Shown here in pieces: positions 14,436 through 36,058 of a stretch of DNA of 59,172 nt. Numbering within the stretch: position 1 is the stretch's first letter; each line of letters opens with the position of its first letter. The DNA is taken from positions 1-59,172 of the forward strand of contig JBHPDT010000003.1 of NCBI GenBank assembly GCA_042577545.1, given 5' to 3'. Under the pieces are notes generated by a model. That model searched no databases and had not been told where the DNA came from. It was given only the letters and a program-made list of their open reading frames with translations. The translations under genes and the position numbers were made by a program. This DNA is from Candidatus Omnitrophota bacterium (GTDB lineage Bacteria; Omnitrophota; Gorgyraeia; JABMRG01).

Positions 14436-14446
14436 CTAGATCCTCT

Positions 14447-16584: not shown

Positions 16585-18020
16585 ATTGCGCCTTTTAATT
16601 CACCTATTAGCGTCTTCTCTTCAATGTCCTTTATTTTAACATCAGAGAGGGCTCCTATCAAGCTCTTATCTCCTTTATATACAACTTGCTGGTTACCGCG
16701 GGTTCTTCCCTTTATAAAAAAACCTGAGAGATCATTTGACGCTGATGGCTTTCTCTTAGCAGGCCTAAGACCCAGAGCCTCTTCCACTGAACCGATACGC
16801 TGTTCATTCTTATATCTTGTCATATCATTCTGAAGAATAAGGAGAGATTGATTACGCTCCTCCTTTATTTTTCTGGGAACATCATCATCAAGATCCGCTG
16901 CCTTTGTAAAAGGCCTGGGTGAATATTTAAAAATAAAGGAGCTATCAAATTTGATCTCTTTCATAAGCATGTATGTATCCATAAAGTCTTTATCGCTCTC
17001 CCCCGGAAATCCCACTATAATATCTGTTGTGATAGTAACATCTGGTATTATCTTCCGTAGTGAATCAACAAGCCCCAAGTAATGAGAGACCGTGTATTTT
17101 CTGTTCATAAGCTTTAGTATTCTATCAGCACCAGACTGCAGAGGAATATGAAGATGCTCACATACCTTTTTTAGATCCCTCATAGCGCTAAAAAGATATA
17201 CTGATACGTCCTTAGGATGAGATGTCATAAAACGGATCCGTTCTAATCCATCTATCTTGTTTATCTCCTCTAATAATCCAACAAAATCTGGTAACTGGTT
17301 ACTGGTTTCCCCTCGACGTCGCTCGGGACTTCCTTTGGTCGCTGGTTTCTCTCCGTAGGAGTTCACATTTTGCCCCAATAGAGTCACCTCTTTAGTGCCG
17401 GCATCAACAAGCCTCTTGATCTCATCTATTATATCTTTAGCTGGCCTTGAGGCCTCTCTGCCCCTTACATGAGGCACGATACAGTATGAGCAGAAATTAT
17501 CACAACCCTCACCAATATTAACAAACGCCCTGATCTTCTCATCACGATAAGCAGCTGAACCTTTCTTCATAGGCCTTTTTTCTCGTCCTATAGATACTAT
17601 ATGCTTTTTACCAGCTCTTATCTTATCTATGATCTCTGGTATATCATATATATTAGCTGGGCCGCAAACAAAATCGACATGAGGTAGTCTCCTAAAGACC
17701 TCTTTGCCATAGGCCTTTCCCATGCAACCGACTAAGCCCAAAATTCTTTTGGGCTTAGTCGCCCCCCTGCTTAGTTTTGCGCTAGCAAAACTAGGGGGGC
17801 CTATTACTTTCACCAAACTACCTAGATTCCCCCACACCCGATCCTCAGCGTGTTTGCGCACAGAGCATGTATTATATATAATAAGATCCGCCTCATCAGC
17901 AGACTGCACAGGGGCATACCCCTCCTGCATCATCATCCCGCAGATGATCTCACTATCCCGCTCGTTCATCTGACAGCCGTAGGTTTTGATAAATACTGTT
18001 TTATTAAGGCGTTGACTCAT
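16581..18020 (-). CDS. miaB: tRNA-2-methylthio-N6-dimethylallyladenosine synthase MiaB (methylthiotransferase)
   Basis: N-terminal FIKTYGCQMNERDSE..IYNTCSVR..VGCMG cluster ligands, radical SAM CDNFCSYCIVP, and a C-terminal TRAM-like region. It contains extra in-frame segments (see 17730-17800). Confidence 0.9.
   Translation of the reverse strand: MSQRLNKTVFIKTYGCQMNERDSEIICGMMMQEGYAPVQSADEADLIIYNTCSVRKHAEDRVWGNLGSLVKVIGPPSFASAKLSRGATKPKRILGLVGCMGKAYGKEVFRRLPHVDFVCGPANIYDIPEIIDKIRAGKKHIVSIGREKRPMKKGSAAYRDEKIRAFVNIGEGCDNFCSYCIVPHVRGREASRPAKDIIDEIKRLVDAGTKEVTLLGQNVNSYGEKPATKGSPERRRGETSNQLPDFVGLLEEINKIDGLERIRFMTSHPKDVSVYLFSAMRDLKKVCEHLHIPLQSGADRILKLMNRKYTVSHYLGLVDSLRKIIPDVTITTDIIVGFPGESDKDFMDTYMLMKEIKFDSSFIFKYSPRPFTKAADLDDDVPRKIKEERNQSLLILQNDMTRYKNEQRIGSVEEALGLRPAKRKPSASNDLSGFFIKGRTRGNQQVVYKGDKSLIGALSDVKIKDIEEKTLIGELKGAI
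17730..17800. repeat. Two adjacent strong hairpins embedded in-frame in miaB
   Basis: Hairpin A (17730-17760) is GACTAAGCCCAAAA-ttc-TTTTGGGCTTAGTC, a perfect 14-bp stem. Hairpin B (17761-17800) pairs CCCCCCT/AGGGGGG and GCAAAACT/AGTTTTGC with a small bulge. Together they encode GPPSFASAKLSRGATKPKRILGLV, inserted just before the conserved VGCMG. Confidence 0.7.
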
Positions 18021-18167: not shown

Positions 18168-18545
18168 TTATTGCCCTATTACCTTTCTGGCAATAACAAA
18201 TAATACCAAGAAAATTAAATCAAGAAAAGCGAAAACAACCCAAATAGTCGGTATACTAACGGACATCCAATGAAATAGTACCACCCCGGAATAGGATATC
18301 TTCAGTAAGATTCCGTACAGGATCAAGCTGCGATTTGCTAGTGGGTTTCTGGCAATATTAAAAAACATGATCGCAAAAATGATCAACAACAGTGCCGGAA
18401 ACTGAACATAACCAACATGATTGGGCGGAGGCACATTGGCCGCTTTAAAAAGCTGATAAGGAATCAACACAAACAACAATCCTAAGATTCCGTCATACAA
18501 ACCCGCTATCACAAAAAACGGTTTGATCCATTTAGGCATTCCCAT
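18168..18545 (-). CDS. Small integral membrane protein (about 4 TM), unknown function
   Basis: 125 aa, strongly hydrophobic segments. It is the last gene of the lipid-like cluster. Confidence 0.55.
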   Translation of the reverse strand: MGMPKWIKPFFVIAGLYDGILGLLFVLIPYQLFKAANVPPPNHVGYVQFPALLLIIFAIMFFNIARNPLANRSLILYGILLKISYSGVVLFHWMSVSIPTIWVVFAFLDLIFLVLFVIARKVIGQ

Positions 18546-18570
18546 CTCAACCTCCTTTGTGGTTGGTTTT

Positions 18571-19866
18571 CTATTTTAACTTCTTCTCAATTACCTCGTA
18601 AATCTCAGTGTGCTTGCCGCGATCCCAATTTAAATAAATGGATTTAGATAATTCTTCATTTAACGGCAGCGCCTTCAGATTGTTTTCCTGAAAGATCTTC
18701 AATATCGTGGGCGAATACTTTTCACATAACCAACATTCGCCCGGAAATTCGAAACGACTTCTCATCCTCTTGTAAATATCAATAAAATCCTCTTGCCCGA
18801 TATTGCCGAAGGAAATATTCAGGAACTCGCACGGCTGAACGTCTCCTTTTGCGTTAATATAAAATCTGTCTGTGCCGCCGGCAGTACATCCAAAAACATT
18901 GGGATCCTCTTCAAGAATTTGCGCTGAAATCGAAGGATAATCTTTATAGCGGGCATCGTTGTTATACATGTGAACCAATTCTTTAATATTATCCAGATCA
19001 GCTTTGCTGAAATTCTCTATGCCTGACTCAAGCCATCCTCCCGAAGGCTTGGGTTTTATCAGCTGAATCAAACACGCGTTAAATTCTTTTGTCTTATCCA
19101 TTAATTTCTGAAAATCTCCGTTATAAAAGCTTTCCCGCTTAAGACAAGAGTTAAAGGTTACTGCAACATCTGCTTTATGGCATAAACGAATGCCTTCAAC
19201 CATAGTGTTCCAGGCTTTATCTGACTTCATAAAGGCATTAACTTTTTCCGGTTCTGTGCTATGCAGTGAAAACATAATTGCTGTAAGGCCTAAGCTTTTC
19301 AATTCCTTTAAACGTTCAATGCTCATTTCGTCACCAGTTGAATTAACCCAAATCTCTGCCCCCTTACCAATCGCTGCACATAATTTTTTAAGACGCTCAT
19401 AAACCAAAAAGGGCTCTCCACCTTCGATATTGAAAAAGGCAATGCCTAAATCCTGCAATTTCTTAACCGCAGCGATAGTTAGATCAATATTGATATCCTT
19501 GCCTAAATCCTTTTTCTGATAGCAATGTTCGCAATTAAATCGGCAAGCTGAAGTGACCGAAACAAGCACTGTCGTGCAAGGGAGCTTTTCATCAAACACC
19601 ATGAACTTGCGACAGGCGGTAAAAAATGCCTTGGAAGGAAAACGGGGAATATATAACCCGAGGCGAACGCTATTTCCTATTTTAACAAACTTGTTATGAT
19701 AAATTTTCGATAGAAAATAGAGCAACCGTCTTAGAAATAATATGTATCTTCGCGGAGAAACCTTGCCTTTAAATAGGTCTGGAAGATAATAAAATAAAAT
19801 CCACAACTTAACCTTGGTGGCAAATAGACACTTCCTGAATCCAGTAATATTTTTTCCTTTTATCAT
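18571..19866 (-). CDS. Radical SAM protein with C-terminal SPASM/twitch-like Cys region
   Basis: VSVTSACRFNCEHCYQ (CX3CX2C), GGEPF, and C-terminal FGCTAGGTDRFYINAKGDVQPCEF plus CWLC. Confidence 0.8.
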   Translation of the reverse strand: MIKGKNITGFRKCLFATKVKLWILFYYLPDLFKGKVSPRRYILFLRRLLYFLSKIYHNKFVKIGNSVRLGLYIPRFPSKAFFTACRKFMVFDEKLPCTTVLVSVTSACRFNCEHCYQKKDLGKDINIDLTIAAVKKLQDLGIAFFNIEGGEPFLVYERLKKLCAAIGKGAEIWVNSTGDEMSIERLKELKSLGLTAIMFSLHSTEPEKVNAFMKSDKAWNTMVEGIRLCHKADVAVTFNSCLKRESFYNGDFQKLMDKTKEFNACLIQLIKPKPSGGWLESGIENFSKADLDNIKELVHMYNNDARYKDYPSISAQILEEDPNVFGCTAGGTDRFYINAKGDVQPCEFLNISFGNIGQEDFIDIYKRMRSRFEFPGECWLCEKYSPTILKIFQENNLKALPLNEELSKSIYLNWDRGKHTEIYEVIEKKLK

Positions 19867-19868
19867 AT

Positions 19869-20906
19869 TTAACCAGCCTGCTCTTTATACCACTTAACGG
19901 TATTTTTTATTCCTTCGTCTAAATCATAACTGCTTTTATATCCTAATACTTGCTCGGCACGATCCGTTGAATATTCGATATTGTCATAAAACATATTTAC
20001 CCTGCCTCTTGTCAACAAAGGTGGATTTTTAACATTAAACATAGTGTATATCAACTCCAAGAAGAATCCTAGGGGATAAACCATCCATTTAGGCAGCAAT
20101 ATTGGTTTTTTGACTTTAGCGTGTTCACAAAACAAAGAAAATATATTGTCCAGATGTTCATGTTTATGATCACCAATAATAATTCGATGTATCCCTTTCA
20201 ACTGTTTAGTAAACGCTAAATAATAAGCCCTAGCCACATCGGCAGCATAAACCACATGGAATTTATTTTTTCTAGATCCCGGAGAAACCGGAATCCCCTG
20301 TTCAACAGACTTAATATATTCAAGAAATACAGTGTCTTTGCCGTTTTCTCCATATACCCAGACAGGCTCTAATATAGTCAAATTCATACCTTTGATCGTG
20401 GCAAAATCTATAGCTTTTTCAGAAGCAATTCTTTTTGTATCCCGATAGTGATTCAGCTTACAAGGAAACATGCTGTCTAAAAAATATGGATAATGAGAGT
20501 TGTAAGGTGAATTTTCGCTTTTTATTTCAGAAGAATCTTCTTCCCCATAAACTGAGTTTGTACTTGTAACGATTGCATCCTTTATTCCATTTACAACACA
20601 AGCATTAAGAACATTGACGGTGCCCTCGACATTAGTTTGATAAAATGTGTCATAGCCTCCCCAATCTTTGGCGTAAGCGGCATTATGAATAACAAAATCA
20701 TATCCTTTAAAGGCATTTATTAAACTCTGCTGATCACGAATATCGCCGTATTTCAATTCAACATCATATTGTTTTATATAATCTAAATTGCTTGCCTTTC
20801 GGACAAGACAAGAGACCTTAACGCCATTATTTGAAAACGCCTTCACAATATGACTGCCGATAAATCCATTGCCGCCTGTAATTATTATTTTATTTTTTAT
20901 TGTCAT
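19869..20906 (-). CDS. NAD(P)-dependent epimerase/dehydratase-family SDR (3-beta-HSD-like)
   Basis: ITGGNGFIGSHIV Rossmann motif and YRDTK (YxxxK). Confidence 0.8.
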   Translation of the reverse strand: MTIKNKIIITGGNGFIGSHIVKAFSNNGVKVSCLVRKASNLDYIKQYDVELKYGDIRDQQSLINAFKGYDFVIHNAAYAKDWGGYDTFYQTNVEGTVNVLNACVVNGIKDAIVTSTNSVYGEEDSSEIKSENSPYNSHYPYFLDSMFPCKLNHYRDTKRIASEKAIDFATIKGMNLTILEPVWVYGENGKDTVFLEYIKSVEQGIPVSPGSRKNKFHVVYAADVARAYYLAFTKQLKGIHRIIIGDHKHEHLDNIFSLFCEHAKVKKPILLPKWMVYPLGFFLELIYTMFNVKNPPLLTRGRVNMFYDNIEYSTDRAEQVLGYKSSYDLDEGIKNTVKWYKEQAG

Positions 20907-22170
20907 ATTTCTTTAACACAATCCCCGCGTTATGCCCACCAAAACCATAAGATGTTGATATCGCCATATTCACTTCAGACTCAATGGACTTATCTACTAA
21001 ATTTAAGTTTTCTCGTGGTTCAGGAACACTGTTTCCATGGATCTTTGATTCTTTAATCGTAAGTGCTGTTACTGCCGTCTCTAAAGCCGCGCTTGCTCCA
21101 AGGGTATGCCCGAGTATGCCTTTTGTAGAATTAACAAGTGGTTGATCACTTTTAGGACCGAAAACCTCAGCTATCGCTTCGGATTCAATAGCATCATTAG
21201 CAAGAGTGCCGCTTCCATGGGCATTTAGATAATCAATGCGGCGATCCTGCTTAAGTCTGTCCAACAATTTCTTAATCTGACAACCTGACGGCTCCATTTG
21301 AACGATGTTAAAGGCATCGCTGTTGCTTTGGAAATCTACTATTTCAGCATAAATAGGAGTTCCTCTCTTTAAGGCATGCTGCTCCTCTTCTAGCACAAGA
21401 ATACAAGCAGCCCCTTGAGAAAATAAAAAGCCCGTACTTGTCTTTGAAAAAGGATACGGGATACCGTCTGGTGATTGTGTAAGAACACCTAACATATCAA
21501 ATCCTCTCATTATCCCGCCGAAATTATCAGATAGACACTCTACTCCTCCAGTTAAAATAATATCTTCGGGCCCATTTTTGATCTTCTCATAAGCATTGCC
21601 AACAGCAAACATCCCTGAGGCGCAAGCAGCGTTAATTGTATAGCTCGTTCCTTTTAATCCATAGGTGATTGAAATCCAACTGGAAATCGAGTTCGGCATA
21701 AGCATAGGCACAACCATGCGGTTATAACGAATTTTAATATTATCCAAAGCCTTAGGAATTTCGCTCTTATCCTTGATTATGTGGGCTAAATAAGAATGGA
21801 ATCCTGTTTCAAGGCTGCTGATACCTATACCGACTATGACGCCACATCCATTAATCCCATTTATAGAAAAGTTATTCTCATTTTTAACTACTTTTAATCC
21901 TGCATCCTTCAAGGCCAGACTAGCGGCAATTAAAGATAGTTTATCTTCGCCCTGCGTAACCTTGCTGTAATACTGCGGGAACCCGTATCCTTCGAGCTCT
22001 ACGGCTGGATGAGGATTGTAATAACGGGATTTAAAAGTATAACCTATCTCAAAATCCTCTGGTATTTCCTTAATGCACATGCGATTATTAAGAATGCTAT
22101 CAAAGAAGTCATCCTTACCTATTCCGATGGAACTCACAGGCCCAATACCAGTTATTACGACTCGCCGCAT
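20890..22170 (-). CDS. Beta-ketoacyl-ACP synthase (KAS I/II, FabF/FabB-like)
   Basis: VVITGIGPVSSIG, active-site INAACASG, NAHGSGT, GHTLGASAALE and SYGFGGHNA. Confidence 0.88.
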   Translation of the reverse strand: MRRVVITGIGPVSSIGIGKDDFFDSILNNRMCIKEIPEDFEIGYTFKSRYYNPHPAVELEGYGFPQYYSKVTQGEDKLSLIAASLALKDAGLKVVKNENNFSINGINGCGVIVGIGISSLETGFHSYLAHIIKDKSEIPKALDNIKIRYNRMVVPMLMPNSISSWISITYGLKGTSYTINAACASGMFAVGNAYEKIKNGPEDIILTGGVECLSDNFGGIMRGFDMLGVLTQSPDGIPYPFSKTSTGFLFSQGAACILVLEEEQHALKRGTPIYAEIVDFQSNSDAFNIVQMEPSGCQIKKLLDRLKQDRRIDYLNAHGSGTLANDAIESEAIAEVFGPKSDQPLVNSTKGILGHTLGASAALETAVTALTIKESKIHGNSVPEPRENLNLVDKSIESEVNMAISTSYGFGGHNAGIVLKKYDNKK

Positions 22171-23186
22171 TACTTCTGCTCCTTTAAATAATTGATTAAA
22201 TATTCTAAGTATTTTTTCCGGTCATCAAAATCTCTGGCGCGAACATTCAAATTACTTAAATCTAATGATCTTTTGCCGTCAAAAAAGATTCTTGAGGAAT
22301 CGTTCACCTGACCAATTTTATAAAAAGTTAGCCCCTCTTGCTTTGCCCTCTGTAAAAATTCCTGTTCGTTCTTAGGATTTATTGTAAAAAGAAGTTCGTA
22401 TTCTCCACCTTCGCCTAAAAGTAATAATTCTTTCGGTAACGATACTATAGAAGCGCCCAAAGATCCCATATCAATATAGGGCAAATTACTGATTTCATAA
22501 CCGACATTATTTAGTTCAGCGATAGTATTCAGAGCATTAAAAACACCATCGCTGGTATCAATGCAACAAGCGGCGTAATTGCCTATCAATTCTGATTCTT
22601 TAACACGCAATTGAAACCTGTTTTTGAGCATAGTAGATATCATTTTAAAGCGTTTATCATTAGAATAAAATTTAAGAGCGGCTTCTAAATTTCCTGAGCC
22701 AATCTTTCCTGAAATATAGATTGAGTCATCAATAGCCGCTCCTTTTCGATTAAGAAGCTTACTCCTTGGCTGGCCGATAACAGCCGCTGTATATCGCCAA
22801 TCTTTAGCCTTACCCAAGTCACCGCCGATAAAGACCGCGCCGGATTCTTTCAAAACATCAGAAATCCCTCGGGAGAACTTCTTTATGAAACCTTCATCCC
22901 ATTCAGTACTCACTACCATAGCATGCCCATAGAATAATGGCATCCCCGCGCAGGCTGAAATATCGCTAATCCCTCCGGCTGCGACATTCCATCCTAAAGA
23001 ATAAGGATCATTATCGCGGAACATGTCCTCAGATGAAAACTCATCAATCGTAAATAGGAATTGTTTGTTATTAAGAGAAATAACTTCTGAATCAGATTCG
23101 AAGCATTTATTGAGGCGTTTGTCGCTTTTCGGAAACATGCTTTCGATCAATTCAATCACTTTTTTCTCATCATTAGTTCGCTTCAT
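22170..23186 (-). CDS. AIR-synthase-related (PurM/ThiL superfamily) ATP-dependent enzyme
   Basis: TIDEFSSEDMF...LGWNVAAGGISDISACAGMPLFYGHAMVV and GGDLGKAKDWRYTAAVIG resemble ThiL/PurM-like folds. The substrate is unknown. Confidence 0.65.
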   Translation of the reverse strand: MKRTNDEKKVIELIESMFPKSDKRLNKCFESDSEVISLNNKQFLFTIDEFSSEDMFRDNDPYSLGWNVAAGGISDISACAGMPLFYGHAMVVSTEWDEGFIKKFSRGISDVLKESGAVFIGGDLGKAKDWRYTAAVIGQPRSKLLNRKGAAIDDSIYISGKIGSGNLEAALKFYSNDKRFKMISTMLKNRFQLRVKESELIGNYAACCIDTSDGVFNALNTIAELNNVGYEISNLPYIDMGSLGASIVSLPKELLLLGEGGEYELLFTINPKNEQEFLQRAKQEGLTFYKIGQVNDSSRIFFDGKRSLDLSNLNVRARDFDDRKKYLEYLINYLKEQK

Positions 23187-24111
23187 TTATCAACTCCAAT
23201 TTATCTTTTGCCATTTCTATTCGGCAAGGTAGAAATCCCTGCGGATCACCGTCAAATTCGATTTCAATAGGATTGCCATTTGAAGATATTTCGATATTTT
23301 TAGCATACGTAAGATTAATTGTTCCTTTATTTGAAATTTCCTTACCGCTGTAAATAGTTTTCACACAATAAGGCACTTTCCTCCAAGAAACATCCCGCAC
23401 GGTTAGAATATAAAACATATTGTCGCCTTCATTAAGATTATTATGGACTTTTATTCCCGAAGCGATATGAAACGTTTTCCCTACTGAAAGATTGTATAAT
23501 TTGGATAAAAGCTCTCTTCTGTCGTCAAGAGACACTGATACTTCTAACGGCCTGTAATTCATAAATGCTTTAAGCAAAGACGAAAAAGTTCCCAGGTAGT
23601 CCCCTGCTATTTTTCTAATTCCTGAATTTGCGTAACGAGCCACAGATGCGCCTAAACCAACATTGACACAGCACGAGAAATAACGGGTTATTAACTCTGA
23701 TTGTGTTTCTTTAGTTAATATTATCTTTCCAACCTGTATTTCAGTCGTATTCCCTTTCAAAAGGACATTAATTGCCCCTTCGATTTGCTTATACGGCACG
23801 CAATAGCTTTTACAGAAATCCGGGCTTGTGCCGGTATAAATAACACCCATTTTCGTTTTAGAGATTTTGAGACCATCATCATAGAATCCATTTAAAACCT
23901 TATTTATCGTGCCGTCTCCGCCAACGGCAACTATTACATCATAAGCCGACTTATTAGCCTTTTTTGATAATAAATAGGCATCTTGCAACGATTCTGTAAT
24001 GCCATATTCATAATTAACTTCCCTCTCGCTCAGTAAATTGCGTATACGAGAAATTGAATCTTTGCTTTTCCCATTACGTGAACCCGGATTAAAGATAAAA
24101 AAGTACTTCAT
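23173..24111 (-). CDS. Lipid kinase, diacylglycerol-kinase catalytic-domain family (YegS/sphingosine-ceramide kinase-like)
   Basis: FIFNPGSRNGK and DVIVAVGGDGTINKVLNG (the DAGK_cat signature). Confidence 0.8.
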   Translation of the reverse strand: MKYFFIFNPGSRNGKSKDSISRIRNLLSEREVNYEYGITESLQDAYLLSKKANKSAYDVIVAVGGDGTINKVLNGFYDDGLKISKTKMGVIYTGTSPDFCKSYCVPYKQIEGAINVLLKGNTTEIQVGKIILTKETQSELITRYFSCCVNVGLGASVARYANSGIRKIAGDYLGTFSSLLKAFMNYRPLEVSVSLDDRRELLSKLYNLSVGKTFHIASGIKVHNNLNEGDNMFYILTVRDVSWRKVPYCVKTIYSGKEISNKGTINLTYAKNIEISSNGNPIEIEFDGDPQGFLPCRIEMAKDKLELINEAN

Positions 24112-25295
24112 TTTTGATTGAATTCCTTGGCAATCTTTTTAAATTTCTCTAATGCTTTTACGATGGTGTCTTGGGATAAATTGGCCCCGGCAATCAACCG
24201 TATTTTATTTTCATTAGGAGGCACTGAAGGCGGTATAAACGGTGTTGCCAAAATACAATTTCCATGAATCATCTTTGCCAAACGAGCGCAGTCTTCCAAC
24301 TCCCTTATCAAGATTGAGTTAATCGGCGCTTTCCCTCCTGTTAAGGTGAAATCATTATCAATCAGGCACTCACTTATCATATGTTTGTATTTCCACATCT
24401 TTTCGCTAAGAGATGGGAATTCTTTATCAATAATATCTAGGACGGCTTCAATTCCAGCTAAAACGGGCGGAGGCAAAGCTGTTGAATAAATAAGCCCTGG
24501 GCATGAGTATTTTAAATATTCTATCAGTTCCTTTTTACCACTAATAAACCCGCCTGCATTTGCTAATGCCTTACCCAAAGAAGCGGTGTATATACCATTA
24601 AAATCTTCAATATTTTCTTCTTCTAAAATTCCTCGTCCTGATCGACCGATAACCCCGATACCATGAGAATCGTCAATAACTGGTAAGGCATCGTATTCTA
24701 AACATAATTTAACAATTTCATCAAAAGGAGCTATGCTGCCTTCAGTTGAAAACACGGATTCAGTGACTACCAAGACCCGTTTATATTCAGATGTTTTCTC
24801 CAAGAGTTTCTTCAGGTGGTTCATATTATTATGAAGAAACGGCTTTACTTTACATCCGGCTAAACGTACCCCTTGAATAAGTGACGCGTGAGCATAGTGA
24901 TCTATGATAATTAAGTCATCGGGTTGCGCCAAAGACATAAACAAAGCGCAATTAGCTTGATAGCCAGAAGGGAAAATAATTGATTCTTCGAGCCCAACAT
25001 AATCGGATAATCTTTGTTCAAGCCTCTTTAAGATAACCATTGAACCCGTAGCTATCGGCGTACCGCACATTGAAGCCCCATATTTTTGTGTAGCTAAAGT
25101 TATTGCCTCAATAACCCTTTTGTCTGCGGCAAGGCCAAGATAATTATTCGAGGCCAGATTAATAAATTCCTTTCCATCAATGATAATAGGATCATTTAAA
25201 CCCGACTCTATACTGCAATAGTACGGATTAAATTCATACTTATCGACAAGGCTCTTATCTACTTTAAGATTCGCGTAAAAATCATTTCTTCCCAT
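24108..25295 (-). CDS. PLP-dependent alpha-oxoamine synthase (serine palmitoyltransferase / BioF / Kbl family)
   Basis: NNYLGLAAD, DDSHGIGVIGRSGRG and SLGKALANAGGF (PLP lysine). The start overlaps the stop of the ACP gene. Confidence 0.85.
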   Translation of the reverse strand: MGRNDFYANLKVDKSLVDKYEFNPYYCSIESGLNDPIIIDGKEFINLASNNYLGLAADKRVIEAITLATQKYGASMCGTPIATGSMVILKRLEQRLSDYVGLEESIIFPSGYQANCALFMSLAQPDDLIIIDHYAHASLIQGVRLAGCKVKPFLHNNMNHLKKLLEKTSEYKRVLVVTESVFSTEGSIAPFDEIVKLCLEYDALPVIDDSHGIGVIGRSGRGILEEENIEDFNGIYTASLGKALANAGGFISGKKELIEYLKYSCPGLIYSTALPPPVLAGIEAVLDIIDKEFPSLSEKMWKYKHMISECLIDNDFTLTGGKAPINSILIRELEDCARLAKMIHGNCILATPFIPPSVPPNENKIRLIAGANLSQDTIVKALEKFKKIAKEFNQK

Positions 25296-25540
25296 TACGA
25301 CCCCCTTAAATCAGGACAGTATTCCTTTAAAGCTTTAACAATATCCTTTACGTTTTTGATGCCTCGATAATGTTGATCTTCGATGTTTATACCAAATTCG
25401 TCCTCTAAGGCATTTACAATTATGACCATGGCAAAAGAATCAAGCCCAAGCTCATTGCGCAAATCAATATCTGCCGTAACTTTGGCTTTCTCCTCAAGGT
25501 TTTCTTCAATTATTTTTATAACTCTCTCTTCTAAGGTCAC
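25295..25540 (-). CDS. Acyl carrier protein
   Basis: 81 aa with LGLDSFAMVIIVNALEDEFG (phosphopantetheine Ser in DSF). Confidence 0.85.
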   Translation of the reverse strand: MTLEERVIKIIEENLEEKAKVTADIDLRNELGLDSFAMVIIVNALEDEFGINIEDQHYRGIKNVKDIVKALKEYCPDLRGS

Positions 25541-25549
25541 TTTCTCCTC

Positions 25550-26776
25550 CTAAGGTTGAATAGCCTTACCAAAATAACACTTTGTAGAATTAGGGCTATC
25601 GCACATGACTGCGCACATATTACAATCCAAACATTTCGCTTTGTAAGAATCATTAGCTATTAATTTATTAACCAAATCCGGTTCGCAAATAAAAGGTCTG
25701 CACAAACTAATAAAATCGGTTTCTCCTCTTCCTACAGCATCGATCATCTCTTGTTTGGCCCTAAACCCGCCAATACATATAACTGGTATTTGTGTATGCT
25801 GTTTCGCAATTTTGGCGTAGGGCAAATTATACGTTAGTGTGAACATTTTCATTTGAAGCTTCTTAAAAGGATACAAAATCCTTCTTCTCATTGTTCGAAT
25901 AAACGTGTTATTCGACTTATATCTTGGATTATATTGTAATATTGCATCAATAGGCACACGCTTGCCTCTGAATATGCTTAAAGCATGATCCATGGTTCCA
26001 TAACTAATTTCAATGGCATCAACTTTTTTATGATCCAGGAAACGTATTAACTGAACAAAATTATCCTTGCTAAAGCCATTAAAATAATCATCCCCGCAGC
26101 TTACTTTAACCAATAAGGGGAAATCCGTGCCGCATTTATCTCTTATACTATCAATTACAACCCCTAAGAAATGAGTTCCTATGCCGCTCTTTTTATCAAC
26201 ACCAAAAATATCTCTTCGGTTATTAATAGACGGTAAGAGAAACTGATGTATAAGATATCCGTGAGCGACGTGTATTTGCACACCATCGAAACCACTTTTT
26301 TTACACCTCAAAGCCGCTTCAGCAAAACATTGGGCCATAGAAAATGCCTCTTCTGTGTTTAATGGTTTTGGGATGCTACGAAAATAAGGAGACCTTTTTG
26401 CTGACACCCCTTTGACATTACCATTTACAGCTTCTGGTATGGTTTGCCGGCCGCTGTGAATCAATTGCATAAAAATCTTTCCATTGTGCGAATGCACTTG
26501 ATCTGTAACCTGCCTATACCTCTCAATTTTTGCATCATCATCAATTCCAGCCTGTTTCGGCTGCATGACTCTTCCGGATTTCGTTATATAAGTACAACCC
26601 GTGATTATCGCGCCGATATTATTTTGGGCAAGCTTACTATACAGATTGAGGTATTCATCAGTTGGCATACCCTGGCTGTCACACATTCCTTCATACGTAG
26701 CAGAACGAATTATCCTGTTTTTTAAAGTAATGCTGCCAATTTTCACCGGCTGAAAAAGCATATTTTGTTCACTCAT
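25550..26776 (-). CDS. Old-yellow-enzyme family FMN oxidoreductase with C-terminal Fe-S Cys motif (2,4-dienoyl-CoA reductase N-domain-like)
   Basis: LKNRIIRSATYEGM, FMQLIHSGRQ, GVQIHVAHGYLIHQFL and C-terminal CLDCNMCAVMC. Confidence 0.8.
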   Translation of the reverse strand: MSEQNMLFQPVKIGSITLKNRIIRSATYEGMCDSQGMPTDEYLNLYSKLAQNNIGAIITGCTYITKSGRVMQPKQAGIDDDAKIERYRQVTDQVHSHNGKIFMQLIHSGRQTIPEAVNGNVKGVSAKRSPYFRSIPKPLNTEEAFSMAQCFAEAALRCKKSGFDGVQIHVAHGYLIHQFLLPSINNRRDIFGVDKKSGIGTHFLGVVIDSIRDKCGTDFPLLVKVSCGDDYFNGFSKDNFVQLIRFLDHKKVDAIEISYGTMDHALSIFRGKRVPIDAILQYNPRYKSNNTFIRTMRRRILYPFKKLQMKMFTLTYNLPYAKIAKQHTQIPVICIGGFRAKQEMIDAVGRGETDFISLCRPFICEPDLVNKLIANDSYKAKCLDCNMCAVMCDSPNSTKCYFGKAIQP

Positions 26777-27756
26777 GATTTTGCATTCGGGTGTAATTCA
26801 AATAAAAATTCTACAAACATATAAGACATCATAAATAACCACATAGCAAGATCAGGGTTGAAGAACGCAATTATCGTTGCTTCGCCACAAACACAAGCAC
26901 GGAAGTTTGTCTTTAATGCCGCATACGTTTGAGGGCCTGTGGGATTTCGATAATAAAGCACGCCCGTCCATGCCTGTATGAATATGGTTAAACATCCCAG
27001 CATGATAAAAGTGCTGTTAATTTTTACCAGCCACATATCCAGAGCTTTAAAAATAAAAAAAGCCAGTGTAGGTAGAAATGTGGCAAAAAGAGCCATTAAC
27101 CGAGCATTATTCAGCCCATATTTTACGACGAGCGTATTCTTACCCGCCGCCTTATCCCCCTCATAATCCTTAAAATAGGTATAAAAAGTCATCAAACCAT
27201 TTAAAATCCAAATAAGCGTTAACGCAGCGAAGCGATGGGGTGCTAAAAAAGACGCCTGAGTGGGCCCGCAAGCATAGAAACCAAAAAAAGTAGCCATAGT
27301 AATCATTAAACCAAACACAATGTTACCCCAAATGCCATGCCCTTTTGAAAATTCATATATGACATTAAGGGCTGCTCCGACTAGGATGAAAGCTGCTGCA
27401 ATCGGCTCAAGATAAAACCAAGTGATTCCGCAAGCCAGAAAAAGAATCGAAATGGAAAGAAATAAGGCTTTCTTAGCGTTGAGTTCACCAGTTACCATAG
27501 GACGATCAGGAGCATTAATCCTGTCTTCTTTCAACCCAAGATAATCATTGATTATCTGATTAACACCCCAGCCTAAAAACAACAAAATTAAAATAACAAT
27601 TTTCTTCTCTTGAGTGGGAATAATTTCAATGGTTCTTTCCGGATGATTATTGGCTAACAATTCATAGTAAGCGACACCGATCCATCCCGCCATACCCGTC
27701 ACAAACGAATAATAAAGCCTCATTGATTTAACATATGCTTTAATAAACTTGATCAT
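26773..27756 (-). CDS. UbiA-family aromatic/polyprenyl transferase (integral membrane)
   Basis: NQIINDYLGLKEDRINAPDRPMVTG (first Asp-rich motif), DYEGDKAAGKNTLVV (second motif), and about 8-9 TM segments. Confidence 0.8.
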   Translation of the reverse strand: MIKFIKAYVKSMRLYYSFVTGMAGWIGVAYYELLANNHPERTIEIIPTQEKKIVILILLFLGWGVNQIINDYLGLKEDRINAPDRPMVTGELNAKKALFLSISILFLACGITWFYLEPIAAAFILVGAALNVIYEFSKGHGIWGNIVFGLMITMATFFGFYACGPTQASFLAPHRFAALTLIWILNGLMTFYTYFKDYEGDKAAGKNTLVVKYGLNNARLMALFATFLPTLAFFIFKALDMWLVKINSTFIMLGCLTIFIQAWTGVLYYRNPTGPQTYAALKTNFRACVCGEATIIAFFNPDLAMWLFMMSYMFVEFLFELHPNAKS

Positions 27757-27771
27757 ACTGCACTCTCCCTT

Positions 27772-28518
27772 TCAACAAAGTGTTTTATTAAACCATTGAC
27801 TGCACTCATTTATAAATTCGTTTGGTTTATCATTAAATATTTTCTCAGCATGCCCTACGCCGTCAATAATTAAAAGCTTCTTCGGCTCTTTAGCTTTTTC
27901 AAAAAGTCTTTGGCTGTGCTCTGGTTTAATGATCCAATCATTAGCGCCGTGAATAAAATAAATTGGCACAGGAGAGATACCTTCTACAACATCAAGGGGC
28001 TTAATCTTCTTTGTTAGCGGATTACCAGGACGGATAAATTTGCCTTTACCTTTCATACCCAGATTTAGCTTTAAATCATTAAGCATTTCCGGTTCCCAAA
28101 AATTAAAATTTATCTGCCATAAATCATAAGGCGCACTAACGGCTATGATGCTATCGATTAATCTGTTTCGGCTACCCTCAATAATCACTACAGCAGCTCC
28201 TAAAGAAAAACCGATGACGCCGATCTTTCTATAATCCTGTTCTTTAGCATACTTTAAAATAGCGGCTAAATCGTTTGGCTCTTCAGATGTCCAGCTAAAT
28301 AATCCCGAACTCTTGCCGTGCCCGCGGAAATCGAAAGACAGCACGTCATAATATTGGGCAAATTGTTGCGCCATATTCTTGAATAGATAAGCGTCTTTGT
28401 TGTTATAAAAACCATGCGCTAAAATGATGGCTTGTTGATTTTTCCCTTGATAGCAGTCAAACGCTATTGTTTGTCCATCTTTTGTGTGTGTTGACTTACT
28501 TTCCAGAATCATTTCCAT
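27772..28518 (-). CDS. Alpha/beta-fold hydrolase
   Basis: ILAHGF...FDFRGHGKS, nucleophile elbow GFSLGA, then HGANDW and GHAE. Confidence 0.8.
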   Translation of the reverse strand: MEMILESKSTHTKDGQTIAFDCYQGKNQQAIILAHGFYNNKDAYLFKNMAQQFAQYYDVLSFDFRGHGKSSGLFSWTSEEPNDLAAILKYAKEQDYRKIGVIGFSLGAAVVIIEGSRNRLIDSIIAVSAPYDLWQINFNFWEPEMLNDLKLNLGMKGKGKFIRPGNPLTKKIKPLDVVEGISPVPIYFIHGANDWIIKPEHSQRLFEKAKEPKKLLIIDGVGHAEKIFNDKPNEFINECSQWFNKTLC

Positions 28519-28984
28519 TTAGCTCTTTTTCTTTAAGACTTTTTCTCATTTTTACAAGTAGCGAACTAAGCTGCTTACTCTCTTCAAGAGAAAAGCATCC
28601 CATTATTTTCTCGACCGTTTTAACATAGACCGGTTCAACCTCTGCTAATTTCTTTATACCCTTATCAGTTAACTCAACTTGAAAAACTCGCCGGTCCCCT
28701 TCCACAGGCAACCGGCGGACATAATTCTTTTTCTGGAGCTTATCTATAAGAGAAGTGATATTAGAGCGGCTTGAAACCATCCTCTCCCCTATTTCAACTT
28801 GGGTTAATTTGCGATTTTCAAGTTTAATAATTATCATGATATTGTATTGTGATTCAGTAATCCCGAACTTATCGAAAAAGAGCCTTGAGGTTTTACTGAG
28901 ATAATTATTGGTATGCACTATGTCCAATAAAGCTTCATGGCGGGTAGAATTAATTTTTTGTTTTATTTCCTTCCCTAATGACAT
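28496..28984 (-). CDS. MarR-family transcriptional regulator
   Basis: 162 aa. ITESQYNIMIIIKLENRKLTQVEIGERMVSSRSNITSLIDKLQKKNYVRR is a winged helix. It is the first gene of the cluster. Confidence 0.85.
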   Translation of the reverse strand: MSLGKEIKQKINSTRHEALLDIVHTNNYLSKTSRLFFDKFGITESQYNIMIIIKLENRKLTQVEIGERMVSSRSNITSLIDKLQKKNYVRRLPVEGDRRVFQVELTDKGIKKLAEVEPVYVKTVEKIMGCFSLEESKQLSSLLVKMRKSLKEKELNGNDSGK

Positions 28985-29011
28985 GCCATTAACTCCTTTA
29001 TGTTCTCATAC

Positions 29012-29035
29012 AAACTGTTATTATACTAACAGTTT
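29012..29035. promoter_or_regulatory. Perfect palindrome overlapping a TATAAT: candidate MarR operator
   Basis: AAACTGTTA-ttatac-TAACAGTTT sits 28 nt upstream of the marR ATG. On the minus strand the loop and arm read GTTAGTATAATAAC, which contains TATAAT. An AAGGAG RBS follows. Confidence 0.6.
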
Positions 29036-29269
29036 AACATCGAACGATATCATTGTCAAGGCTCAAAAATTAAAAAAGCTCTTATCGACCGATCTGATCA
29101 AAAAGAGCAATTTGCAATAATGCCATAATGAGATATTTGCTTTATTTTTCAATAAATTTTTATATCCTCTTTTCAACGTATAGTCTTTTATAGCATTATT
29201 TTGATTAGCATATTTTCATAACTTCATATTCAATAGATAGTTATACATTATATGATGTTGCTCAAATAG

Positions 29270-29435: not shown

Positions 29436-29795
29436 TTACTCTGATTTTATCGTATTTCTCCATTTTATCAGGCTCTCAATGTCTAAGACTGTAAAAACAG
29501 GATAATTTCTATAATCACGTCTCGGTTTACACCAGCCTTTCTTGATCCAGTAATAAATTGTCTGACGATGAACCTTTAAAATTCTAGCTACCTGTGTCAG
29601 GTTGCACCATCTAGCCAGCCTTTTTCTATATATTCGAAACACCTTGTCATCGACTTCTTCAGTTTTACTGTCTACTTCATATTCGTTTTCATTGCGTCTC
29701 TCTAATATTCCATATGAGCACTTTACATCTGCTTCTAGCAATATTTGAAGAACCTTTTGAAGCCTCTGTCGCTCTTCGTTGCTATAAAAAACCAA
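29436..29795 (-). CDS. Excisionase/MerR-type HTH DNA-binding protein (paralogue of 36458-36880)
   Basis: NLTQVARILKVHRQTIYYWIKKGWCKPRRDYRNYPVFTVLDIESLIKW. The only in-frame start is TTG and the protein has no internal Met. A conserved 11-codon ATG uORF overlaps the start. Confidence 0.7.
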   Translation of the reverse strand: MVFYSNEERQRLQKVLQILLEADVKCSYGILERRNENEYEVDSKTEEVDDKVFRIYRKRLARWCNLTQVARILKVHRQTIYYWIKKGWCKPRRDYRNYPVFTVLDIESLIKWRNTIKSE

Positions 29796-29813
29796 ATCTT
29801 TTTTTAAAACCGC

Positions 29814-30326
29814 TCATACTACCTCCCTTTCCCTTTGCGCAAGAGCTTTATCAAATCTCTTCATACAAACTACAAGCAATGCAACAATAATCATGGGCAC
29901 CATATTGCGAAATAAGACCGAAACAAACGGAGAAAGGTATTCATGAATCTGCGGGAGAGAAACTTCGGATTTTATTCCCGCATCTGAAACAATCTCACGC
30001 ACCCTATACTTTGATTCAACATAACCGGCTCCACCTTCAATAACAGTGCCATCTGAAAATAACACTTTAAGTTTATAACTCCATTCTCCGGCAACTTGAA
30101 TTTGCACATCTTTCGTCTCACCTCTGTCGACACCGTTAAAATCACGCGTTGTCTTGTCAACACCTATGAGTTGGAATGACTCGATATCTTTGTTTGATAC
30201 ATTTTTTACTTCGATTTCAACAGGAGAAGGAGGAAATACTATATGATTGATTACACCCATAGAACCATTGACAATTGTCCCTATGAAAACAATCAATATC
30301 GCATATCTGAATCTCATATAAATCAT
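29814..30326 (-). CDS. Membrane-anchored hypothetical protein
   Basis: 170 aa with N- and C-terminal hydrophobic helices. No recognisable motif. Confidence 0.5.
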   Translation of the reverse strand: MIYMRFRYAILIVFIGTIVNGSMGVINHIVFPPSPVEIEVKNVSNKDIESFQLIGVDKTTRDFNGVDRGETKDVQIQVAGEWSYKLKVLFSDGTVIEGGAGYVESKYRVREIVSDAGIKSEVSLPQIHEYLSPFVSVLFRNMVPMIIVALLVVCMKRFDKALAQREREVV

Positions 30327-30333
30327 CCCCTCT

Positions 30334-31251
30334 CTATTTTTCTTTTGGCCGAATATGAAAAACCGTGATTTCCGGCCGCGCCCAAAATCTTATTCTGGGA
30401 ACACATCCGCCCTCCATTCCGATTCCTCTATTTACATATACAACCTTCCCGTCAACATCATATCGCCCGGATTCGTATTTTTTCCCGTATTTTGAAAGCG
30501 TAACTAATGCGCCATAAAACGGAATGGCAACTTGGCCACCATGGGTGTGACCGGATAAAAACAAATCAACGGGAACATCTTTTACTTCTTCATTTATACC
30601 CGGGTAATGGTATAAGAGAATGTTATAAACAGCTGGCCTTAATCGATCCAAAAATGATAAATTGGCACTATAGCCAACGTCTAATCCAGATATTGAGAAA
30701 GTCTCACCGTCTTTTGATAAAGTCATTGATTGCCCATCTAGCTCACTAAATCCTGTATGCTCAAATAAATCCAGCGCATTCCAATACCAGACATCAAAAT
30801 TGCCTTTTACCGCATACTTCCCAATCCTAGCCTTCAAAGATGATAATGTTTCCCTGAATGCTTGTAAGGAACGCGGCGTATTTAGCGCATCACCGGTAAA
30901 TACAATAATGTCTGGGGTTAGCGCGTTTATAATAAGAGGAAGTTTTGTTTCATTACGTATCTTTTCATCACAATGCAAATCTGAAATTTGAACGATTGTT
31001 AGTTCAGATTCCTTTAGTTTATCCGTTCTAATTTCAATATGCTTCGTTTCAATCCAATACGGCTCGATAAAATAACTGTATGCAAAGCACAGAATACCCG
31101 TGACTGCAATGATATGAACCACATTCGCAAACCAGCTGTGAGCGATAACTTTTCTCTTAATGAAATAAAAAACATACCCGATCTCAATTGCGTAGATAAC
31201 CACCCAAAAAAAAATAAATATTAGTGCTGATATCAGCTCGTCTGCTCTCAT
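30334..31251 (-). CDS. Membrane-anchored metallophosphoesterase (calcineurin-like, YkuE/YaeI type)
   Basis: Two N-terminal TM segments, then SDLHCDE, TGDALN, GNFD and GHTHGGQ. Confidence 0.8.
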   Translation of the reverse strand: MRADELISALIFIFFWVVIYAIEIGYVFYFIKRKVIAHSWFANVVHIIAVTGILCFAYSYFIEPYWIETKHIEIRTDKLKESELTIVQISDLHCDEKIRNETKLPLIINALTPDIIVFTGDALNTPRSLQAFRETLSSLKARIGKYAVKGNFDVWYWNALDLFEHTGFSELDGQSMTLSKDGETFSISGLDVGYSANLSFLDRLRPAVYNILLYHYPGINEEVKDVPVDLFLSGHTHGGQVAIPFYGALVTLSKYGKKYESGRYDVDGKVVYVNRGIGMEGGCVPRIRFWARPEITVFHIRPKEK

Positions 31252-31610: not shown

Positions 31611-31618
31611 AACCCCAT

Positions 31619-32719: not shown

Positions 32720-32725
32720 TATTTC

Positions 32726-32938
32726 TTACAACTCCTTTCCATTATGTGTGTTGCAACTCAATGAATGCCACTCAAATATGGAATAATAGTCGTATAATAC
32801 TGCGTCCATCTGACAACCAAAAGTCTTCAGGTAAATTTTCTTCCTATCTTCTTTCATATCAATGCCTTATAATTTCAGTGTCACGTGTCTAAAACTGTCT
32901 AAACCGATGAACGAGCAGGACGCTAATTTTTGTTAACT
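32726..32938 (-). repeat. Cassette-boundary repeat, copy b
   Basis: Core GTGTCTAAAACTGTCTAAACCGATGAA lies at 32885-32911. Mini-ORF 32857-32726 reads MKEDRKKIYLKTFGCQMDAVLYDYYSIFEWHSLSCNTHNGKEL*. Its end supplies the RBS of yhcG. Confidence 0.75.
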
Positions 32939-33815: not shown

Positions 33816-33828
33816 TTCTCCCTTTAAA

Positions 33829-36037: not shown

Positions 36038-36058
36038 TTTTTATACTCCTTATTTATT

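Follow-up and report, generated by a model that had tools for sequence, protein, structure and literature searches.

What does a compact run of bacterial genes make when each of its enzymes belongs to a familiar family and their combination is found in no paper or curated family, yet is conserved in at least 218 species of about 20 phyla? The question is raised by a 59,172-nt stretch of DNA (the window) from a Candidatus Omnitrophota bacterium (GTDB lineage Bacteria; Omnitrophota; Gorgyraeia; JABMRG01; GenBank assembly GCA_042577545.1, contig JBHPDT010000003.1, positions 1 to 59,172), in which 12 consecutive open reading frames (ORFs), all on the minus strand, occupy positions 18168-28984. Read in gene order, they encode a MarR-family regulator, an alpha/beta-fold hydrolase, a UbiA-superfamily membrane transferase, a flavin enzyme of the old yellow enzyme (OYE) type, an acyl carrier protein (ACP), an alpha-oxoamine synthase (AOS), a DAGK-fold lipid kinase, a ThiL-like ATP enzyme, a beta-ketoacyl-ACP synthase (KAS), a short-chain dehydrogenase/reductase (SDR), a radical S-adenosylmethionine enzyme (rSAM) and a small hydrophobic protein. 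We conclude that this is a lipid or metabolite operon based on an AOS, that its enzyme set is undescribed and its conservation deep and strict, and that, contrary to the public annotations, it is neither a biotin nor a thiamin locus. Compared with a first-pass annotation of the same DNA, made from the letters alone, the case for conservation is now stronger, and the cases for sphingolipid identity and for horizontal transfer are weaker.

That annotation had seen the 12 tightly spaced genes as one operon, and the recomputed coordinates and spacing agree: the junctions overlap by 1, 1, 4, 4, 14, 17 or 23 nt or leave gaps of 2, 9, 15 or 25 nt, with AOS overlapping ACP by 1 nt and the kinase gene overlapping AOS by 4 nt and the ThiL-like gene by 14 nt. 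This layout is that of one compact operon, predicted to be MarR-controlled and headed by a candidate operator. Pfam recovers every enzyme family that had been named and finds no acyltransferase or GNAT domain in any of the 12 products, in keeping with the earlier statement that a GNAT-type ceramide synthase is missing. The statement that no described pathway contains this combination also holds, as the ten enzymes all score below the NCBIfam equivalog cut-offs and a literature search, which covered the gene combination and sphingolipids in Desulfosporosinus or Omnitrophota, gave no paper describing the cassette.

Conservation of a nine-gene cassette

We searched one genome per GTDB species (~185,000 species) with two conserved peptides of the ThiL-like protein and found this marker in at least 218 species of anaerobes from about 20 phyla. 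The best 80 of the 218 loci were fetched and compared by tblastn with the 12 window proteins, and the 40 of these with full flanks were used for co-occurrence counts. The core order UbiA-OYE-ACP-AOS-DAGK-ThiL-like-KAS-SDR-rSAM is kept almost everywhere, at 45-65% identity; outside the window's own clade, the median identity to the window proteins is 47-57%, with rSAM the most conserved. UbiA, AOS, DAGK, the ThiL-like enzyme and rSAM are each present in 40/40 full-flank loci, SDR in 39/40, and OYE and KAS each in 37/40. One of the missing OYE genes is in fact fragmented, and a fragment also occupies the place of the missing SDR. ACP is apparently absent from five loci, four of which have a short, divergent ACP-like ORF in the expected position. 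KAS is absent from six full or near-full loci (L002, L031, L054, L077, L081 and L085); among these, the Spirochaetes DG_61 locus (L002/L003) lacks both OYE and KAS and carries, after rSAM, a 642-aa AMP-binding ligase (13470-15398) that resembles the acyl-ACP synthetase AasR and has no counterpart in any other of the 80 loci.

The cassette is also found in circularly permuted form. In Bacteroidales, Prolixibacteraceae and Ignavibacteriales the order is ThiL-like-KAS-SDR-rSAM-UbiA-OYE-ACP-AOS-DAGK (loci L065-L068, L071, L073, L075, L076, L078, L085 and L035), with breakpoints at the DAGK/ThiL-like and rSAM/UbiA junctions. Clustering of all noncore ORFs within 5 kb of the 80 loci revealed no further recurrent enzyme, only regulators, transporters and unrelated insertions: the recurrent flanking families are XRE-type helix-turn-helix (HTH) proteins, sigma-54 activators, histidine kinases, methyl-accepting chemotaxis proteins (MCPs) and ABC proteins, and the insertions within the cassette are unrelated genes such as those for tetratricopeptide repeat (TPR) and outer-membrane proteins. 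No N-acyltransferase (bCerS) or GNAT gene recurs in the flanks of the 80 loci, and no gene resembling geranylgeranylglyceryl phosphate synthase (GGGPS) is found among the annotated recurrent or intracassette genes or among the Pfam calls of five fully listed loci. Given the same order in diverse loci and the lack of a further recurrent flanking enzyme, the functional unit is a self-contained nine-gene cassette, with a seven-gene minimum of UbiA, ACP, AOS, DAGK, the ThiL-like enzyme, SDR and rSAM. The first-pass annotation had treated all 12 genes as one functional cluster; the operon of 12 stands, but the conserved unit comprises nine genes, the other three being confined to Omnitrophota. It had also proposed a survey of gene neighborhoods, in which the nine central genes prove strongly co-conserved, so one of the ways in which its proposal could fail is closed. 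Conservation gene for gene over about 20 phyla argues for a defined product under selection rather than a one-off secondary-metabolite cluster.

Candidatus Omnitrophota metagenome-assembled genomes (MAGs) encode the nearest named relatives of the ThiL-like protein (67-74% identity), and homologs about 50% identical are found in Desulfosporosinus, Peptococcaceae, Clostridia, Halanaerobiales and Spirochaetes. A look-up of the exact sequence of the window protein itself matched no record. The closest relative of the window locus (L004, an Omnitrophota MAG) has all 12 genes plus one for an M28 peptidase. Bacillota are represented among the 80 loci by more than 15 Desulfosporosinus genomes together with Acetivibrio, Petroclostridium, Herbivorax, Clostridium and Anaerovorax, and the Desulfosporosinus nitroreducens locus reads UbiA-OYE-ACP-AOS-DAGK-AIRS-KAS-SDR-rSAM. 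The other hosts include Omnitrophota, Bacteroidales, Prolixibacteraceae, Spirochaetota, Acidobacteriota, Latescibacterota, Cloacimonadota, Calditrichaceae, Verrucomicrobiota, Desulfobacterota, Ignavibacteriales, Sumerlaeota, Marinimicrobia, Auribacterota and relatives of Fibrobacterota. Cultured carriers include Desulfosporosinus spp., Petroclostridium sp. X23 and Herbivorax sp. ANBcel31.

Oxoamine synthase, carrier protein and ketosynthase

The pyridoxal phosphate (PLP)-dependent AOS (24108-25295, 395 aa, Pfam Aminotran_1_2) lies at the center of the cassette. Its top NCBIfam match is bioF, at 312.6 bits against a cut-off of 426, and Kbl scores 292 bits against 460; among PDB sequences, the Sphingobacterium serine palmitoyltransferase (Spt) matches best (231 bits), before Kbl (195), BioF (157), CapB (151) and CqsA (133). 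In a neighbor-joining (NJ) tree with three references only (BioF and Kbl of Escherichia coli, Spt of S. multivorum), the 68 AOS sequences from the cassettes form one monophyletic clade that lies outside BioF and Kbl. The first-pass annotation had named a position inside the BioF/Kbl clades as the test of its proposal, and by equivalog scores and tree alike the enzyme falls outside both. Two histidines (H136 and H211), the PLP lysine (K242) and the carboxylate-binding arginine (R366) are invariant, which predicts an active AOS of a separate clade. By these sequence features, we assign the protein as a probably active member of its own clade that is neither BioF nor Kbl and whose membership of Spt is unproven. 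No bioA, bioD, bioB or thi gene is present near the cluster, and the window has no bio or tdh gene.

The neighboring proteins are consistent with an AOS supplied from a carrier. The dedicated ACP (25295-25540, 81 aa, GTG start, Pfam PP-binding) has a DS phosphopantetheine site within a conserved LDS motif, and its gene stands immediately upstream of AOS in the loci, the placement expected of a specialized ACP beside an AOS. The FabF-like KAS (20890-22170, 426 aa, Pfam ketoacyl-synt N and C) scores 259 bits with the fabF hidden Markov model (HMM) against a cut-off of 494, with an invariant C183 and conserved HGSGT and GHTLGAS motifs. The resulting Cys-His-His triad predicts a decarboxylating, elongating enzyme.

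Kinase, ThiL-like enzyme and UbiA

Downstream of AOS, two predicted phosphoryl-transfer enzymes are encoded by overlapping genes. The former is a soluble DAGK-fold lipid kinase (23173-24111, 312 aa, Pfam DAGK_cat + YegS_C) of the YegS/DgkB type, with DgkB (2qv7) as its best PDB match. The latter is a ThiL-like member of the PurM superfamily (22170-23186, 338 aa, Pfam AIRS + AIRS_C) whose homologs are publicly annotated as thiamine-monophosphate kinase. It reaches 147.3 bits with the thiL HMM TIGR01379 (cut-off 184.15), compared with 44 for SelD and 26 for HypE, and its best PDB matches are ThiL structures at about 20-25% identity. Residues D27, D43, D71, R142, D207, S209 and D210 of Aquifex aeolicus ThiL, which we take to be catalytic or metal binding as in the ThiL structure paper, align to D32, D48, D75, R147, D210, S212 and D213 of the window protein, and all seven are invariant in 18 diverse orthologs. 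The protein is predicted to be a kinase that converts a phosphate to a diphosphate. An identity as HypE was considered and rejected: a separate HypE-HypD pair is encoded at 57275-59102 (minus strand), and the two AIRS proteins are 22% identical.

The UbiA-superfamily membrane transferase (26773-27756, 327 aa) scores 98 bits with Pfam UbiA (cut-off 34) and resembles digeranylgeranylglyceryl phosphate synthase (DGGGPS) and ChlG. Its best NCBIfam matches are PRK12884 and DGGGPS, below cut-off (PRK12884 83/269 bits, PRK12882 73/296 bits); the best PDB match is DGGGPS (6m31), and chlorophyll synthase is the next-closest family. Of the first motif the protein keeps the DxxINxPxRP tail, and its second motif, DxxxD, is intact (D197 and D201). 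The first motif itself reads NDYLGLKED, with Gly74 replacing the middle aspartate of NDxxDxxxD in 65/65 orthologs.

OYE, SDR and radical SAM enzyme

The remaining core members are redox and radical enzymes. The OYE-type protein (25550-26776, 408 aa, Pfam Oxidored_FMN 180 bits), an FMN ene-reductase or dehydrogenase, conserves the YqjM-type His-x-x-His-x-Tyr triad (H169, H172 and Y174) and a C-terminal CxxCxxCxxxC...C motif (C382, C385, C388, C392 and C400). It matches YqjM, FadH and BaiCD-like proteins; the hits cover only residues 5-280 of models of 640-670 aa, and the window protein ends at 408 aa, lacking the C-terminal FAD/NAD(P)H domain. From these motifs, it is assigned to the iron–sulfur class of FadH and BaiCD, as a predicted member. 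A full-length, 684-aa FadH-type OYE-FAD enzyme is encoded beside the cassette in the Acidobacteriota locus L061 (1968-4022). The extended SDR (19869-20906, 345 aa, Pfam Epimerase/3beta-HSD) is a predicted ketoreductase with HpnA, OleD and 3beta-HSD as its nearest types.

The rSAM enzyme (18571-19866, 431 aa) was previously called a radical SAM/SPASM protein. Pfam does find both Radical_SAM and SPASM, but the SPASM part is partial: four C-terminal cysteines are present (C327-x18-C346 and C378-xx-C381) rather than the seven of the SPASM motif, and C378 is only 76% conserved. The CxxxCxxC cysteines (C108, C112 and C115) are invariant, as are C229, C241, C327, C346 and C381. An N-terminal extension of ~95 aa precedes the radical SAM domain, and the C-terminal domain is of a partial SPASM/twitch-like kind. 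A role as maturase of a ribosomally synthesized and posttranslationally modified peptide was considered and rejected, there being no conserved precursor or small ORF outside Omnitrophota, a hydrophobic 125-aa neighbor and an incomplete SPASM domain. The window encodes further radical SAM enzymes: two B12-binding ones in tandem (42475-43968 and 44285-46279, minus strand) and a third (54228-55538, minus strand) that adjoins an epimerase-type SDR gene (55542-56474). These additional radical SAM and SDR genes may form lipid or cofactor tailoring modules.

Proposed pathway and alternatives

Gene content, the operon, intact catalytic motifs and co-conservation are the direct observations from which a pathway can be drawn. 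Our tentative proposal, which we hold to be a real possibility while stopping well short of calling it probable, is that the cassette, an old one of strictly anaerobic bacteria, makes an unusual two-tailed amino-phospholipid that is phosphorylated, prenyl-linked and sphingoid-like and arises without oxygen. Every substrate in this scheme, the order of its third to sixth steps and the product itself are what we infer. A fatty acyl chain would be placed on the dedicated ACP by the FabF-like KAS or, in one spirochaete lineage, by the acyl-ACP-synthetase-like ligase instead; AOS would then condense the acyl-ACP with an amino acid, serine and alanine being the obvious candidates, to yield a long-chain alpha-amino ketone. 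The extended SDR would reduce the ketone and the iron–sulfur OYE would, in the manner of FadH and BaiCD-type enzymes, add or remove a C=C bond beside the carbonyl, giving a sphingoid-like amino alcohol whose hydroxyl could be phosphorylated by the DAGK-fold kinase and whose phosphate could be turned into a diphosphate by the ThiL-like enzyme. The DGGGPS-like UbiA would next join a second hydrophobic (prenyl) chain to the nucleophile beside the phosphorylated carbon, comparable to the sn-2 OH of geranylgeranylglyceryl phosphate (GGGP), and this chain would stand in for the N-acylation by ceramide synthase, absent here. DGGGPS O-alkylates a phosphorylated lipid alcohol, and sphinganine-1-phosphate and GGGP are alike in their 1-phosphate, 2-nucleophile, 3-tail geometry. 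Finally, rSAM would carry out oxygen-independent tailoring such as dehydrogenation, desaturation or C-C/C-H chemistry. Since an iron–sulfur flavoenzyme and an rSAM stand in place of oxygen-dependent enzymes and all hosts are anaerobes, the two are best seen, by analogy, as anoxic substitutes for oxygen-dependent desaturases and hydroxylases. That the product further represents a new lipid class, an amino-acid-derived long-chain base with a (pyro)phosphate head and an alkyl or prenyl tail attached oxygen-independently by an archaeal-type UbiA, strikes us as doubtful, if worth stating.

Several observations weigh against the two-tailed phospholipid. No product or activity is known for any member of the cassette. 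AOS scores below all three Spt equivalogs (NF047600, Spt-CFB, 293/640 bits; NF047599, 234/500; NF047603, 178/670), and its median identity of 30% to Spt is no nearer than the 31% to Kbl (27% to BioF), where the Kbl and Spt references are 37% identical to each other. The sphingolipid-type chemistry suggested earlier is therefore retained in part only: the chemistry is of the AOS type, but the enzyme lies far below the Spt cut-offs and equally far from Spt and Kbl. The scheme leaves the ThiL-like step without a necessary role and those of OYE and rSAM vague; a Foldseek search of the PDB with the AlphaFold 2 model of rSAM (pLDDT 87.6) returned only the generic SkfB, BlsE, SuiB, viperin and MoaA, at a TM score of ~0.5, and gave no functional clue. 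No prenyl-diphosphate synthase recurs in the cassette flanks of the 80 loci and, given the absence of the canonical middle aspartate from all 65 orthologs, the UbiA donor may not be an ordinary prenyl diphosphate. The presence of KAS in 37/40 loci that have no dehydratase could mean, moreover, that the substrate of AOS is a 3-oxoacyl-ACP rather than a saturated acyl-ACP, which would favor a different route, one that we consider unlikely as a whole but deserving of detail. On that route the pathway itself would make the diphosphate that UbiA uses as donor: 3-oxoacyl-ACP from KAS would be condensed with serine by AOS, the 2-amino-3,5-dioxo product would cyclize to a pyrroline or pyrrole, SDR and OYE would reduce it, and the kinase and ThiL-like enzyme would turn a hydroxymethyl group into a heteroaryl-methyl (or allylic) diphosphate for UbiA to ionize and couple to a membrane acceptor, yielding not a sphingoid phospholipid but an alkylated heteroaromatic lipid, cofactor or signal. 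Each enzyme would be needed on this route, including KAS and the sequence of kinase, ThiL-like enzyme and UbiA, and the route accommodates a KAS with a Cys-His-His triad and no linked dehydratase, the full conservation of the ThiL residues for phosphorylating a phosphate, the invariant NDxxG motif of UbiA, which fits a nonprenyl donor, and the lack of a linked prenyl-diphosphate synthase. The coupling of two kinase steps to a transferase has precedents in the routes from hydroxymethylpyrimidine (HMP) to HMP-PP to ThiE and from F1-P to F1-PP to MfnF, and in the RedL/RedK route to undecylpyrrole a ketosynthase, an ACP, an AOS domain and a reductase give a cyclized aminoketone without a dehydratase. 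However, the six loci without KAS are at odds with it, the ligase of L002 would give a plain acyl-ACP and hence a linear product, lipid alcohols are the known substrates of DAGK-fold kinases, there is no acceptor to name, and UbiA is most similar to ordinary users of prenyl diphosphates.

Other readings depart further from the phospholipid. The product could be a diffusible signal or specialized metabolite, for example an alpha-amino- or alpha-hydroxy-ketone autoinducer or an amino-polyketide that is phosphorylated, prenylated and made under conditions that the lineage-specific regulators sense, and AOS enzymes indeed make CAI-1-type signals, with CqsA structures matched here at 133 bits; the different regulator ahead of the cassette in each lineage and the patchy spread (218 of ~185,000 species) would suit such a role. 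We nevertheless think it quite improbable, as nine conserved genes, a membrane UbiA and a lipid-type kinase among them, are a large number for a signal, the flanks hold no conserved receptor or exporter, and the regulator families are generic. An ordinary ceramide cluster of the Caulobacter type (AcpR, AasR, Spt, CerR, bCerS and CerK) with unrelated genes interspersed would explain the joint presence of ACP, AOS, an epimerase-family SDR and a DAGK-fold kinase and the choice of Spt as best structural homolog of AOS, and Spt-like genes without a nearby bCerS or CerR have been seen in Cloacimonadota (Ding et al. 2024, PMC11334938). This reading is largely refuted and has very little probability left: the operon and its conserved flanks contain no bCerS or other N-acyltransferase, AOS is below all three Spt cut-offs and no closer to Spt than to Kbl, and UbiA, the ThiL-like enzyme and rSAM, being present in 40/40 loci, are not passengers. 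Finally, public names such as thiamine-monophosphate kinase and 8-amino-7-oxononanoate synthase, together with bioF as the top NCBIfam match of AOS, might suggest a chance neighborhood of housekeeping genes (bioF, thiL, fabF, acpP and dgk). That explanation is refuted beyond serious doubt, because all scores are below the equivalog cut-offs, bioA, bioD, bioB and thi genes are lacking nearby, synteny is strict over about 20 phyla and AOS forms a monophyletic clade apart from BioF and Kbl.

Promoter, candidate operator and lineage-specific genes

The three genes outside the cassette, which encode MarR, the hydrolase and the small membrane protein, are additions confined to Omnitrophota. Close orthologs of the MarR-family regulator (28496-28984, 162 aa, Pfam MarR 46.5 bits) are encoded ahead of the cassette in two further Omnitrophota MAGs (83-87% identity), and three more have weaker MarR-family matches there (30-33%), with none outside the phylum. 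The alpha/beta-fold hydrolase (27772-28518, 248 aa, Pfam Hydrolase_4 and Abhydrolase_1), with a GFSLG nucleophile elbow, was found by tblastn in Omnitrophota loci alone among those fetched. The small hydrophobic protein (18168-18545, 125 aa), which has no Pfam match and apparently four transmembrane helices by eye, has orthologs 3' of rSAM only in L004, L007, L008, L010 and L011, all Omnitrophota. In L004/L005, an extra M28 peptidase gene (4335-5306) lies between the hydrolase and UbiA genes and has no counterpart in the window.

Ahead of marR, the best adjoining minus-strand promoter-like site (29031-29059) is sigma-70-like, TTGACA-17 nt-TAAACT with a TG extension (10/12 matches). Its -10 element and the transcription start region are overlapped by a candidate MarR operator at 29012-29035, the near-palindrome AAACTGTTA-N6-TAACAGTTT. 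The first-pass annotation had described a perfect palindromic operator here; the palindrome is indeed present, but 11/12 pairs match (12-nt arms 92% complementary) and only the 9-nt arms AAACTGTTA and TAACAGTTT are perfect. Half-sites of the form ACTGTTA-N6-TAACAGT recur ahead of marR in two other Omnitrophota MAGs, unchanged in L004 and with 1-2 changes in L009, which makes the operator plausible. A winged-helix MarR gene in first position and a palindromic candidate site over its promoter are the features expected of an autoregulated MarR-type operon. The regulators ahead of the cassette vary: Omnitrophota have MarR, Bacillota have XRE-type HTH proteins, and other lineages have sigma-54 activators, histidine kinases or MCPs. 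These lineage-specific differences suggest that expression is conditional rather than constitutive.

Genomic context

In an NJ tree of six concatenated proteins, the window groups with other Omnitrophota, and Omnitrophota, Bacillota and Bacteroidota form clades; two spirochaetes and one proteobacterial MAG are oddly placed. The GC content of the cluster (0.37-0.40) is only slightly below that of its flanks. A phylum-coherent tree and so small a GC difference argue that the window copy is no recent import from another phylum, and the horizontal acquisition raised as possible in the first-pass annotation thus finds no support in a tree that follows phyla and a GC content near that of the flanks. 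Relocation of the cassette within the phylum is possible, as its neighbors differ from those of the closest relative and a mobile/defense patch lies just upstream. That patch (29436-40667, minus strand), directly upstream of the cluster promoter, encodes an HTH_17/MerR-like protein, two metallophosphoesterases, a YhcG/DUF1016 PDDEXK nuclease, PRiA4_ORF3, an AbiEii toxin, an IS200-like Y1 transposase fragment and a DUF4062/Fic-like_C protein.

The cluster had also been assigned to a miaB-associated array, but we found no evidence for such an array that involves the conserved cassette: a single MiaB-like gene (16581-18020, minus strand) adjoins the cluster, 147 nt downstream of its last gene, and the downstream neighbor in L004 is a different one. 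No terminator-like site was seen between the last cluster gene and the MiaB-like gene. MiaA (isopentenyl-pyrophosphate transferase; 10342-11295, minus strand) is encoded 5 kb from the MiaB-like gene, with SPOR/TPR, GH65 and two GT4 genes between. GH65 glycoside phosphorylases are encoded at 12099-14435 and 48318-51173 (minus strand), the second fused to a C-terminal response-regulator receiver domain. In a single 2359-aa ORF at 1723-8802 (minus strand), the T, P (both halves) and H proteins of glycine cleavage are joined to a C-terminal GT1 glycosyltransferase domain, an unusual whole-pathway fusion. With the exception of four shadow ORFs, every ORF of 110 aa or more in the 59-kb window is on the minus strand, and the GC skew is negative throughout.

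Significance

If the product is a membrane lipid, the cassette would represent a third way to attach a second tail, besides N-acylation in ceramides and glycerol ether prenylation in archaeol, and it would bear on how lipid biomarkers of anoxic environments are read. Should the product also form a new lipid class, it would be a sphingoid-isoprenoid hybrid of anaerobes that are mostly uncultured, and it could be a source of the orphan sphingolipid-like and hybrid lipids of anoxic waters and sediments. In that case the PurM superfamily would have, in the ThiL-like enzyme, its first assigned lipid-phosphate kinase. The widespread misannotations as thiamine-monophosphate kinase and bioF would be corrected. 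With several carriers in culture, the question of the product is directly testable.

Comparison with known systems

The bacterial ceramide system of Caulobacter and other Rhodobacteria, which includes the ceramide kinase CpgB/CerK (PMC11324152, PMC11087976, PMC10331486), is like the cassette in having a dedicated ACP that feeds a PLP-dependent AOS, an epimerase/SDR-type reductase and a DAGK-fold lipid kinase. In Caulobacter, AasR acylates the specialized ACP AcpR, which feeds Spt, and the dehydrogenase CerR acts on the keto group (PMC11324152); the L002 variant of the cassette parallels this AasR-AcpR-Spt logic through its AasR-like AMP ligase. In contrast, the cassette lacks bCerS, the curated Spt families do not include its AOS and KAS takes the place of the ligase in most lineages; it adds a co-conserved UbiA, ThiL-like enzyme, iron–sulfur OYE and rSAM, and its hosts are strict anaerobes of other phyla. 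Ding et al. (2024) described many Spt-like genes in anaerobic phyla, those of Cloacimonadota having no bCerS or CerR nearby, and suggested nonhomologous replacement (PMC11334938). The cassette occurs in Cloacimonadota and may belong to the same picture.

In combining KAS, ACP, AOS and a reductase without a dehydratase, the cassette resembles RedL/RedK, whereas its proteins are discrete rather than parts of a polyketide synthase, other prodiginine genes are absent and some variants lack KAS. The bile-acid bai pathway pairs the SDR BaiA with the iron–sulfur flavoenzyme BaiCD. FadH and BaiCD share with the cassette an OYE TIM barrel followed by a Cys-rich iron–sulfur motif, the pairing with an SDR that acts on the adjacent carbonyl or alcohol and a setting of anaerobic chemistry; the cassette OYE differs in its truncation, without the FAD/NAD(P)H domain, and its substrate is unrelated. 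With ThiL, the ThiL-like enzyme shares the PurM-superfamily fold and every catalytic residue, and in line with thiamin and methanofuran logic it directly follows a kinase in the same operon as a diphosphate-using transferase. Unlike ThiL systems, the cassette has no thiamin gene context, and the partner is a UbiA membrane protein, not ThiE or MfnF.

The FCB-group and Cloacimonadota UbiA genes for DGGGPS colocalize with GGGPS, a context that differs from that of the cassette (PMC7852524). The archaeal DGGGP synthase (6m31) is the closest sequence relative of the cassette UbiA, and both keep the DxxINxPxRP tail and the DxxxD motif. The cassette protein scores 83 rather than 269 bits, has an invariant Gly and no linked GGGPS or glycerol-1-phosphate dehydrogenase, and it is predicted to use an AOS-derived amino alcohol as acceptor instead of glycerol phosphate. 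DGGGP synthase is, however, a membrane enzyme that alkylates the nucleophile beside the phosphorylated carbon of a single-tailed lipid, the very reaction that we propose for the cassette UbiA.

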